Under the pieces are notes generated by a model that saw only the letters and a program-made list of their open reading frames with translations, was not told the DNA's origin and did no database searches. From a virus: 14,373 bases of DNA. A program made the position numbers and the translations under genes. The stretch lies in the UHGV virus genome UHGV-1698782; one strand, written 5' to 3'. Shown here in pieces: positions 5,418-6,190 of this stretch (position 1 is the first letter of the stretch; each line of letters starts with the position of its first letter).

Positions 5418-5446
5418 TTGACAAAAACACTGCCTGTAACTATAAT
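5418..5446 (+). promoter_or_regulatory. Consensus sigma70 promoter for hicAB
   Basis: TTGACA (5418-5423), 17 nt spacer, TATAAT (5441-5446); both hexamers match consensus exactly. Confidence 0.65.
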
Positions 5447-5481
5447 TAGTTGCAATGTAGCGAAGATGAGATTATGTGGGT

Positions 5482-5730
5482 ATGGGGAAAGCAGATAAGC
5501 TACTGGAAAAGTTTTTAAACAGTAAAAAAACGTTTGAATGGGATGAGCTGGTCGTTTTGTTTTCCTCTCTGGGAGATGTCAAAAAGGAAATGCAGGGCTC
5601 AAGAGTGCGGTTTTTCAATGCTGAAATCAACCACACCATATTAATGCATCGCCCACATCCAGAAAGTTATATTAAAGGTGGAACGCTGAAAGCGATTAAA
5701 CAGAATCTGAAAGAGGCTGGGGTATTATGA
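5482..5730 (+). CDS. hicA: HicA-family type II toxin (mRNA interferase)
   Basis: C-terminal signature GSRVRF...HRPHPESYIKGGTLKAIKQNLKEAG matches the HicA/YcfA fold pattern (GSH...HxPHP...GTL..I.KQ..AG). ATG at 5482 preferred; the track start at 5476 is a GTG. Confidence 0.8.
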   Translation: MGKADKLLEKFLNSKKTFEWDELVVLFSSLGDVKKEMQGSRVRFFNAEINHTILMHRPHPESYIKGGTLKAIKQNLKEAGVL

Positions 5731-6071
5731 AGCATCTAAAATATAAAGGGTATTTAGGTACAGTAGAACCAGATTTTGAAAATAATATCCTGTACGGAAA
5801 ACTGGCGTTTATTCGAGACCTGGTAACTTATGAGGCTTCTACATTAGCTGAACTGGAACAGGAGTTTAAGACATCGGTTGAGCTGTATTTACAGTCTTGT
5901 GTGGAGGATGGAAAGGAGCCTGATACCCCGTTTAAAGGTGTGTTTAACGTCAGGCTTGATCCAGAACTGCATCGTCGGGTAGCAGAAATGGCGATGGAAG
6001 AAGATTTATCACTGAACGCCTTTGTTAATAAGGCGCTGGAAAAAGAAGTCAACCATCACACAGGGGCTTAA
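5727..6071 (+). CDS. hicB: HicB-family antitoxin with a C-terminal ribbon-helix-helix region
   Basis: 4-nt ATGA overlap with hicA; the motif KGVFNVRLDPELHRRVAEMAMEEDLSLNAFVNKALEKEV is typical of HicB; toxin-first gene order is characteristic of hicAB. Confidence 0.8.
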   Translation: MKHLKYKGYLGTVEPDFENNILYGKLAFIRDLVTYEASTLAELEQEFKTSVELYLQSCVEDGKEPDTPFKGVFNVRLDPELHRRVAEMAMEEDLSLNAFVNKALEKEVNHHTGA

Positions 6072-6160
6072 TGTTCCCTTCGTCTTTGACATCCTCACCG
6101 CCACGAAGAATGGGGAATTTACGGCGCACTGGTAAATGGTGGGGCGAGCAGGAGGCAAAC

Positions 6161-6190
6161 AAAACCCGGCACCAAGGCCGGGTTTTGTTA
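6161..6190. terminator. Bidirectional rho-independent terminator between the convergent hicAB and protease genes
   Basis: AAAACCCGGC-ACCAAG-GCCGGGTTTT: a GC-rich 6 bp stem extended by A/T pairs, with a T-run on the plus side and an A-run (U-run on the minus strand) on the other. Confidence 0.65.

Follow-up and report, generated by a model that had tools for sequence, protein, structure and literature searches.

Introduction

The hicAB locus of Haemophilus influenzae gave its name to a family of toxin-antitoxin (TA) modules (PMC11594946). The subject of this study is a hicAB pair at positions 5418–6190 of the virus genome UHGV-1698782, a stretch of 14,373 nucleotides which we refer to in its entirety as the window. 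The closest described relative of this pair is carried by IncX4 plasmids, which are conjugative and about 30 kb in length. Lin et al., who called it HicA^O B for the overlap of its open reading frames (ORFs), showed in E. coli that its HicA is toxic and is fully neutralized by its HicB (PMC11878559). As represented by p14EC007a and pJIE143, the plasmid pair has the same promoter, operator, overlapping ORFs and lengths (82 and 114–115 amino acids) as the pair described here. The window copy differs in that it lies in a prophage immunity region, not on a conjugative plasmid, and in that its HicA carries the substitution Y32D.

The HicAB pairs that have been studied experimentally share a HicB composed of a partial RNase-H fold and a DNA-binding domain, and they are autoregulated at palindromic operators (PMC11594946, PMC10865869). 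The pairs of B. pseudomallei (6G26/4C26), Y. pestis (HicAB3, 4P78) and E. coli K-12 have the same HicA fold as the window pair (helix, three strands, helix) and the same toxin-first gene order. However, sequence similarity to these pairs is marginal (profile search of the PDB, E ∼0.02; weak hhalign matches to K-12), and the K-12 HicB has a helix-turn-helix (HTH) domain whereas the window HicB has a ribbon-helix-helix (RHH) domain. Every HicA studied to date depends, for its toxicity or its RNase activity, on the histidine of a G-S-H turn that lies between strands 1 and 2 (Bps His24, Yp His28, Stp His36 and Ec His23; PMC3969222, PMC11594946). The window HicA departs from these proteins in having Arg41 in place of the essential histidine, an extra, near-invariant His56 brought in by a two-residue insertion, and an extra N-terminal helix.

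Lambdoid phages provide a precedent for the location of the pair. When phage genomes were searched at the protein level, hicB turned up in the coliphages mEp234, HK106 and mEp506; a nucleotide search of phage genomes returned a 90-bp flank only and no hicAB. The GenBank record of the mEp234 immunity region (EF120460.1) gives the order cI, hicA, hicB, a hypothetical gene, Timm, oL3–oL1, pL and N; hicAB in the rexAB position of lambdoid phages is already on record. Similar to the window, these three phages have hicAB between cI and Timm/OL/PL, a HicA which lacks the histidine of the G-S-H turn (the turn is GSG) and keeps H-x-P-H-P, and an upstream palindrome with related half-sites (TGCAACT/AGTTGCA) separated by a longer spacer than in the window. 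In contrast to the window, where hicAB lies on the strand opposite to cI, their hicAB is on the cI strand directly downstream of cI; their HicB is longer (152 amino acids), and their HicA and HicB are only 35% and 42% identical to the window proteins. Thus, the module itself is already known, with genes named in RefSeq, a near-identical pair tested in the laboratory and a recorded lambdoid precedent, and it carries little weight as a discovery.

Results and Discussion

Identity and layout of the hicAB cassette

An initial annotation of the window, made from its letters and ORFs, had proposed a HicA-type toxin and a HicB-type antitoxin, coupled by an ATGA overlap and driven by a perfect consensus promoter. 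All of these elements were recovered on the + strand within 5418–6190: a sigma-70 promoter at 5418–5446 (TTGACA at 5418–5423, a 17-nucleotide spacer and TATAAT at 5441–5446), hicA at 5482–5730 (82 amino acids), hicB at 5727–6071 (114 amino acids), and a terminator hairpin at 6158–6189. The hicB ATG overlaps the TGA stop of hicA by four nucleotides at 5727–5730, and this ATGA arrangement is as the annotation had described it. Its assignment to the type II HicA/HicB family is borne out by Pfam matches above cut-off, by the predicted folds and by the operon order. HicA aligned along all 58 positions of PF07927 (HicA_toxin; COG1724) and scored 39.1 bits (cut-off 27), and HicB scored 71 bits with PF05534 (cut-off 21). 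No NCBIfam model matched HicA; RefSeq still names it as a member of the HicA family.

The hicA frame is open from a GTG at 5476 through 5730, with an alternative in-frame ATG at 5482. Because every homologue begins with MGK or MSK, hicA almost certainly starts at the ATG, and we rejected the GTG as its start.

The structure predicted for HicA by AlphaFold2 (AF2; predicted local distance difference test [pLDDT] 91) has a core fold resembling the double-stranded RNA-binding domain (dsRBD), with one extra N-terminal helix (residues 3–13). Its top four Foldseek matches in the PDB were all HicA proteins (1whz, 6g26_E/F and 4c26), with target-normalised TM scores of 0.58–0.71. A family profile trimmed to the core retrieved HicA chains only from the PDB, bar one designed binder. 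The full-length profile also matched RNA polymerase delta and a sulfurtransferase; these matches were due to the N-terminal helix and were discarded, as trimming to the core removed them. A single-sequence search of the PDB with HicA returned nothing, and hhalign comparison of HicA and HicB with their E. coli K-12 counterparts aligned the C-terminal PHP region only, or was insignificant.

HicB was modelled (pLDDT 89.6) as four to five strands, a long helix and a short strand-like segment followed by two helices, and its best PDB matches were HicB of B. pseudomallei (6g26_A/B), HicB3 of Y. pestis (4p78_A) and TTHA0281 (2dsy). The model has the architecture of the family, an N-terminal partial RNase-H-like domain joined to a C-terminal RHH domain. 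In a single-sequence search of the PDB, the C-terminal part matched a CopG-family RHH protein, alongside one further chance match. The window HicB is 62% identical to HicB of H. influenzae.

Type II hicAB modules of class 4 were defined by Gerdes in 2024 (PMC10865869). With its toxin-first order, overlapping genes and RHH-type HicB, the window pair has the features of this class, and we therefore place it there. The same arrangement of toxin and antitoxin was found in all homologous loci examined, and overlapping pairs of 82 and 113–115 amino acids are also present in Photorhabdus, Salmonella and Xenorhabdus. Relative to the plasmid copy and to another prophage copy, dN/dS is 0.09–0.11 for hicA and 0.03–0.06 for hicB, and both genes are under strong purifying selection. 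We consider it very probable that the element is a complete, self-regulated class 4 hicAB cassette, carried as a moron in a variable slot of a lambdoid E. coli prophage. Based on these comparisons, we commit to reading hicAB as a working or recently working autoregulated module and as an accessory cassette.

Two further features of the coding region were considered. A 66-amino-acid ORF at 6071–6271, overlapping the hicB stop, was rejected as a gene: it crosses the terminator into the opposite gene, and its conservation with the JNEC-KY204 prophage ends at 6136. In addition, a 15-nucleotide segment within hicA (5575–5589) is 87% complementary to 6079–6093, just past the hicB stop and 489 nucleotides away. 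Long-range pairing within the mRNA is possible, as is chance. Homology to the IncX4 plasmids stops at 6080, inside the downstream arm of this pair.

One cassette on conjugative plasmids and in prophages

The window is an E. coli lambdoid prophage. Positions 5250–6250 are 99.6% identical to the chromosome of E. coli UCPROB-002, in which RefSeq annotates the same two proteins as HicA family toxin and HicB family antitoxin. The cassette core, from two nucleotides before the −35 hexamer to nine nucleotides past the hicB stop (5416–6080), is 91% identical at the nucleotide level to IncX4 plasmids, and the encoded proteins are 95% (HicA) and 96% (HicB) identical to the plasmid pair. Plasmids account for 444 of the 479 places at which the cassette was found in complete E. 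coli genomes; the cassette occupies the prophage site described here in 9 of 5426 E. coli genomes. A search of PLSDB returned 798 matching records, 785 of them conjugative. Two plasmids typed as IncX4 by PLSDB, pSH696_34 and pMCR-13EC-C962A, encode HicA and HicB under the same protein accessions as the reference plasmid locus.

Compared with the IncX4 copies, the cassette in prophages extends about 44 bp further upstream and about 56 bp further downstream and has a different terminator. Its hicA leader is also rewritten, and the Shine-Dalgarno match there is weak. The locus thus offers a clean case of one promoter-to-stop cassette common to conjugative resistance plasmids and to prophages.

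A HicA clade without the canonical histidine

In the window HicA, the turn that carries the catalytic histidine in studied toxins reads G39-S40-R41-V42. A profile alignment sets Arg41 opposite residue 24 of Bps HicA and His28 of Yp HicA, so the protein lacks the canonical catalytic histidine, and to call it an RNase like canonical HicA is an extrapolation. The same alignment revealed a two-residue insertion, H56-R57, before the shared P-H-P, which turns it into an H-(K/R)-P-H-P motif. These features characterize a large subfamily. An exhaustive HMMER search of sequences clustered at 50% identity retrieved 1,502 clusters at E ≤1e-3 and 250 at E ≤1e-10. Among 140 full-length representatives of the best HMMER matches, position 41 is arginine in 123 and histidine in one, and position 42 is never histidine. 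His56 is present in 137 of the 140 and His59 in all of them.

The IncX4 HicA, 95% identical to the window protein, has the same GSR...H(K/R)PHP motif. Because that protein is toxic, this clade of HicA is evidently active in the absence of the canonical histidine. In the numbering of Butt et al., a histidine at position 40, which corresponds to His59 here, is spatially close to His24 (PMC3969222), and His56 and His59 would be the obvious candidates to substitute for the canonical residue. We tentatively suggest that the GSR clade may act on RNA, by cutting or binding it, through an active site that has moved to His56/His59 and Arg41, or may use a non-canonical mechanism. Our literature searches found no RNase assay of this HicA subfamily and no paper noting the replacement of histidine by arginine in this clade. 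That toxicity should persist in a HicA clade without this catalytic residue is a testable oddity.

Promoter, candidate operator, leader and terminator

The TTGACA-17-TATAAT promoter is the only 12-of-12 sigma-70 match between 4500 and 8800, and no other site anywhere in the window comes within one mismatch of the consensus. Shuffled sequences contained a mean of 0.07 such sites, with at least one in 13 of 200 shuffles. The consensus promoter named in the initial annotation is thus both real as a match and unique. Transcription is predicted to start at about 5452–5454.

An inverted repeat, TGTAACTA-TAAT-TAGTTGCA, occupies 5435–5454 and is centred on the −10 hexamer. The pattern TGTAACTA-N4-TAGTTGCA occurs once in the window, with 0.04 occurrences expected by chance. 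We aligned the regions upstream of nine homologous hicAB loci with HicA identities down to ∼61–74%; these included IncX4, another E. coli prophage, two Photorhabdus chromosomal sites, a Salmonella plasmid-like contig, Xenorhabdus and two metagenome contigs. The arms of the palindrome are kept at fixed spacing across the nine loci, down to ∼60–70% protein identity, and the −35 TTGAC and its distance to the palindrome are kept in eight of the nine. The 4-bp spacer between the arms, and hence the −10 element, is variable (TAAT, CTGT, TTGT, TTAT, AAAT or TAAA). The operator of the IncX4 copy is identical to that of the window. Conserved arms around a variable spacer are a pattern that fits a protein-binding site, and the RHH-type HicBs studied so far use palindromic operators to repress their own synthesis (PMC10865869). 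By analogy, the palindrome over the −10 hexamer is likely to be the operator at which HicB, through its RHH domain, represses its own operon. With an operator so placed, the perfect promoter would probably be under tight autorepression by HicB.

Translation signals differ between the two genes. The anti-Shine-Dalgarno match is −3.0 kcal/mol for hicA and −7.2 kcal/mol for hicB, and most homologous hicA genes lie between −5 and −12 kcal/mol. The hicA leader of the prophage lineage is unlike that of all other homologues. The weak ribosome-binding site of hicA suggests a low toxin-to-antitoxin ratio.

The terminator lies about 90 nucleotides past hicB. Its arms, 6158–6170 and 6177–6189, are complementary at 13 of 13 positions and form a perfect stem with a 6-nucleotide loop, preceded by an A-run and followed by a T-run. 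Folding energy is about −24 to −27 kcal/mol on either strand (z about −3). Since a U-tract follows the G+C core in both directions, the hairpin can terminate transcription from either side. Rfam matches to Thr_leader and isrJ over this hairpin were discarded, as the hairpin itself accounts for both of them and they fall far under the gathering score.

Position in the immunity region

The initial annotation had also placed hicAB between cI and a PL candidate, and this position holds. A cI-type repressor gene (HTH and S24 peptidase domains) lies on the − strand at 7699–8412 with cro to its right. On the other side of the cassette, a − strand promoter, TTTACA-17-TATATT, lies at 5206–5178 with an operator-like site, TATAACTTGCGGTGATT, over its −10 at 5180–5196. 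The degenerate pattern TATMAC-N5-GTKATA has three sites in the window; the best is OR itself at 8417–8433, the cI–cro palindrome from which the pattern was taken. The PL-candidate and cI–cro regions also have the core TGCGGTG in common. It is reasonable to regard 5180–5196 and 5206–5178 as OL and PL. The third site, at 7266–7282 with two mismatches, lies over the start region of the protease gene described below and could be a repressor site or a chance occurrence.

Two terminator-like hairpins on the − strand, at 5321–5308 and 5374–5355, separate the cassette from PL/OL. They lie about 100–170 bp to the right of the PL candidate, matching the position of Timm in the annotated mEp234 immunity region. 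The segment that contains them is common to Stx2a phages and JNEC-KY204 up to 5387, the left edge of the slot. Taken as a whole, the − strand of 5280–5420 showed no unusual folding energy (z = +0.6).

The pair had been described as convergent with the protease gene and as sharing a bidirectional terminator with it. The terminator is indeed bidirectional; however, the direct convergent neighbour of hicB is a 56-amino-acid ORF on the − strand (6188–6358), which lies outside the TA pair, and the protease gene (SDH-type, ClpP-like serine protease; − strand, 6359–7270) stands behind it. The 56-amino-acid ORF stays next to hicAB in relatives without the protease, as in loci L014 and L015, where it lies beside hicAB and cI. 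It has a sub-threshold match to an ArgR-like winged helix. Also within the cI-side operon, 7441–7602 on the − strand encodes a 53-amino-acid signal-peptide or membrane-anchored protein. PADLOC returned no match for the protease, the 56-amino-acid ORF or the 53-amino-acid protein.

Expression in the lysogen, which the annotation had presumed from this position, is plausible, on a different basis. Because hicAB lies on the strand opposite to cI, it cannot be driven by PRM; hicAB is not co-transcribed with cI from PRM but has its own sigma-70 promoter, and the bidirectional terminator stands between it and the cI side. Expression of hicAB in the lysogen from this promoter would be plausible, probably held down by HicB.

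An exchangeable slot between PL and cI

We located the junctions of the region by pairwise blastn of the window against locus L002, JNEC-KY204 (L003) and the Stx2a-converting phage Stx2_EC3283 (L004). The junctions of the slot are sharp, at ∼5387 and ∼7414. Sequence to the left of ∼5387 is common to JNEC-KY204 and the Stx2a-converting Oslovirus phages. In JNEC-KY204, this junction is followed by a Panacea-domain TA pair and then by the hicAB cassette (window 5372–6136, 93% identical). Without the protease block, 6137–7413, the cassette there abuts the gene of a small membrane protein and cI (window 7414 onward). In the Stx2a phages, the slot is filled by a Panacea pair together with a restriction enzyme and methylase of the PstI/BsuBI type. 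In FHI_NMBU_10 and strain 48, the slot consists of hicAB and the 56-amino-acid ORF next to cI, with no protease. The arrangement in 2015C-3121 is the same as in the window, with the protease intact. The protease gene is split in UCPROB-002 (L001) and absent from L003, L014 and L015.

From the blastn junctions, the hicAB cassette as moved between prophages extends from 5388 to 6136. We considered whether hicAB and the protease form a single system and rejected this, since the two occur independently (L003, L014, L015 and IncX4); the protease block is separate cargo. As read from these alignments, the slot is prone to recombination and takes up several cargo blocks independently of one another, hicAB among them and bona fide defence genes as well. 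The PL-to-cI interval of this phage group is thus an exchangeable slot for restriction-modification (R-M), Panacea TA, hicAB and ClpP-like protease modules. The slot corresponds to the position of rexAB in lambda. Similar to hicAB, lambda rexAB is exchangeable accessory cargo between cI and PL/OL with presumed expression in the lysogen. The two have no relation in sequence or mechanism, and hicAB has its own promoter, convergent to cI, instead of PRM.

The slots of the relatives also contain unannotated genes. The slot lies at positions 4027–7477 of L004 and 6034–6884 of L003. In the Stx2a Oslovirus phages it carries an unannotated Panacea TA pair and a complete PstI/BsuBI-type R-M system, and the Stx2_EC3283 record, with two features overall, annotates none of this stretch. 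In the window, three segments, 5285–5313, 5376–5404 and 6143–6171, are loosely similar to one another (62–72%), each combining an A-rich run with a G+C stem. The first and third run into terminator hairpins, and the second and third adjoin the junctions at ∼5387 and ∼6136. These segments may be short boundary sequences for module exchange.

Possible roles of the prophage cassette

In the scheme that we infer for hicAB, which covers its RNase activity, operator binding, expression in the lysogen and biological role, the consensus promoter would fire rightward, independently of cI. HicA and HicB would be translated from one mRNA, with hicB coupled to hicA through the ATGA overlap, and the transcript would end at the hairpin common to the converging cI-side genes. 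The N-terminal partial RNase-H-like domain of HicB would bind and block HicA, while a HicB dimer or tetramer would repress transcription by placing its RHH domain over the −10 palindrome. When not bound by HicB, HicA, a small protein of the dsRBD fold, would arrest growth, most likely by RNA cleavage.

The role of the module is most likely accessory, in defence or in competition between mobile elements, and not one needed by the phage itself, and the context of the slot favours an accessory or defence role. In abortive infection, the role raised by the initial annotation, the HicAB complex would stand ready in the lysogen, an infecting phage would free HicA, either through shut-off of host transcription or as a direct trigger, and the cell would be stopped before the phage cycle completes. 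This is a possible role that we put forward with caution. The slot holds recognised defence cargo in relatives (the PstI-like R-M system and the Panacea TA pair), the cassette promoter is independent, and Gerdes argues from gene contexts for HicA domains in defence (PMC10865869). However, no HicAB has been shown to defend against phage, and a review considers that anti-phage function still needs experimental validation; for the HicAB-like pair of Adephagia, no target phage was found (PMC11594946). The one prophage-borne HicAB tested for defence, HicAB2 of P. putida, is a working TA module that was negative for both defence and stability phenotypes (PMC12894663), and no PADLOC model matched HicA, HicB or their neighbours. 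In addition, HicB of a sister plasmid subfamily is stable for hours (PMC11878559), which argues against release of HicA by antitoxin decay, and the toxin of the window is itself possibly attenuated.

Selfish persistence and anti-addiction against IncX4 plasmids are live alternatives to a defence role. The pair may have persisted by addiction, with its loss being costly, or by hitch-hiking among recombining modules, with no benefit to phage or host. We hold this explanation to be conceivable and no firmer than tentative. It fits the occurrence, on hundreds of conjugative IncX4 plasmids, of what is essentially this cassette together with its promoter, its presence at the prophage site in so few E. 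coli genomes (the 9 of 5426 noted above), the sharp breakpoints of homology, and the strong purifying selection on both genes that would be expected of a working addiction pair. In IncX4 itself, however, an earlier study discarded a role in plasmid maintenance (as cited in PMC11594946), and HicAB had only a slight effect on plasmid competition (PMC11878559). Moreover, an integrated prophage is rarely lost, which leaves little for post-segregational killing to act on.

The other alternative is that the toxin is decaying and the antitoxin is what is useful: HicA would be weakened, and HicB would neutralize the IncX4 toxin and repress the shared operator. The substitution Y32D is found in the window and the UCPROB strains only, with tyrosine in all other copies examined, including the sister prophages; the 140 representatives have Y, F, A or G at position 32, without a single D or other acidic residue. 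The Shine-Dalgarno match of the window hicA is the weakest among its homologues and falls well short of that of hicB, and many E. coli copies of this hicA have a disrupted N-terminus or a 5′ truncation. HicA of the window may therefore be attenuated, by Y32D and by its weak Shine-Dalgarno sequence. The near identity of the two HicBs (96%) and the identity of the IncX4 operator to that of the window make the prophage hicAB a possibility as an anti-addiction module against IncX4 plasmids. Against decay, the hicA ORF is intact with low dN/dS, the sister prophages keep Tyr32, and by our own reading E. coli K-12 HicA (L016) has valine at the comparable position; we regard this explanation as unlikely. 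Nevertheless, the acidic residue at position 32, the weak leader and the frequent hicA truncations, taken with the missing canonical histidine, the negative result for the P. putida pair, the absence of PADLOC matches and the maintenance and competition data from IncX4, weigh against our reading of hicAB as a working module with an accessory function.

Other elements in the window

The region to the left of the PL candidate contains a second set of regulatory elements. On the − strand, 4544–4731 matches a C4 antisense RNA (78.9 bits) directly downstream of an isrK-like RNA (64.8 bits). The C4 RNA lies upstream of a Rha/Ash-type antirepressor gene (ORF 3842–4627), and is accompanied by a matching − strand promoter at 4766–4738 and a weak match to a c4-a1b1 target at 4692–4744. 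The region looks like an antirepressor control module of the P1/P7 immI or Gifsy type, just downstream of the PL candidate. The annotated start of ORF 3842–4627 may be too far upstream, since its N-terminal 'Ash' match overlaps the C4 RNA. Between the PL candidate and the isrK promoter, about 450 bp (4732–5178) are devoid of an N-like gene, as is the case in every annotated relative, and the isrK terminator (4661–4676) stands between the PL candidate and the leftward genes rha, kil, gam, recT and exo.

Within this interval, a 112-bp segment at 4799–4910 is absent from UCPROB-002 and from the Stx2a phage. A 191-bp query spanning it (4760–4950) was at least 80% covered in 109 E. coli genomes, with 100% identity in the eight best matches listed. 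The segment is a common indel variant, and we rejected its interpretation as a mobile element.

Other TA modules are present in this prophage and its relatives. A RelE/HigA pair lies further left in the related prophage of UCPROB-002 (L001). In the window, a sok antisense RNA (119 bits) was found on the + strand at 13773–13947, downstream of the Q antiterminator gene, together with a 51-amino-acid ORF of the Hok/Gef type on the same strand at 13942–14097. By these matches, the sok and Hok/Gef-type pair is a second TA module, of type I, in the same prophage.

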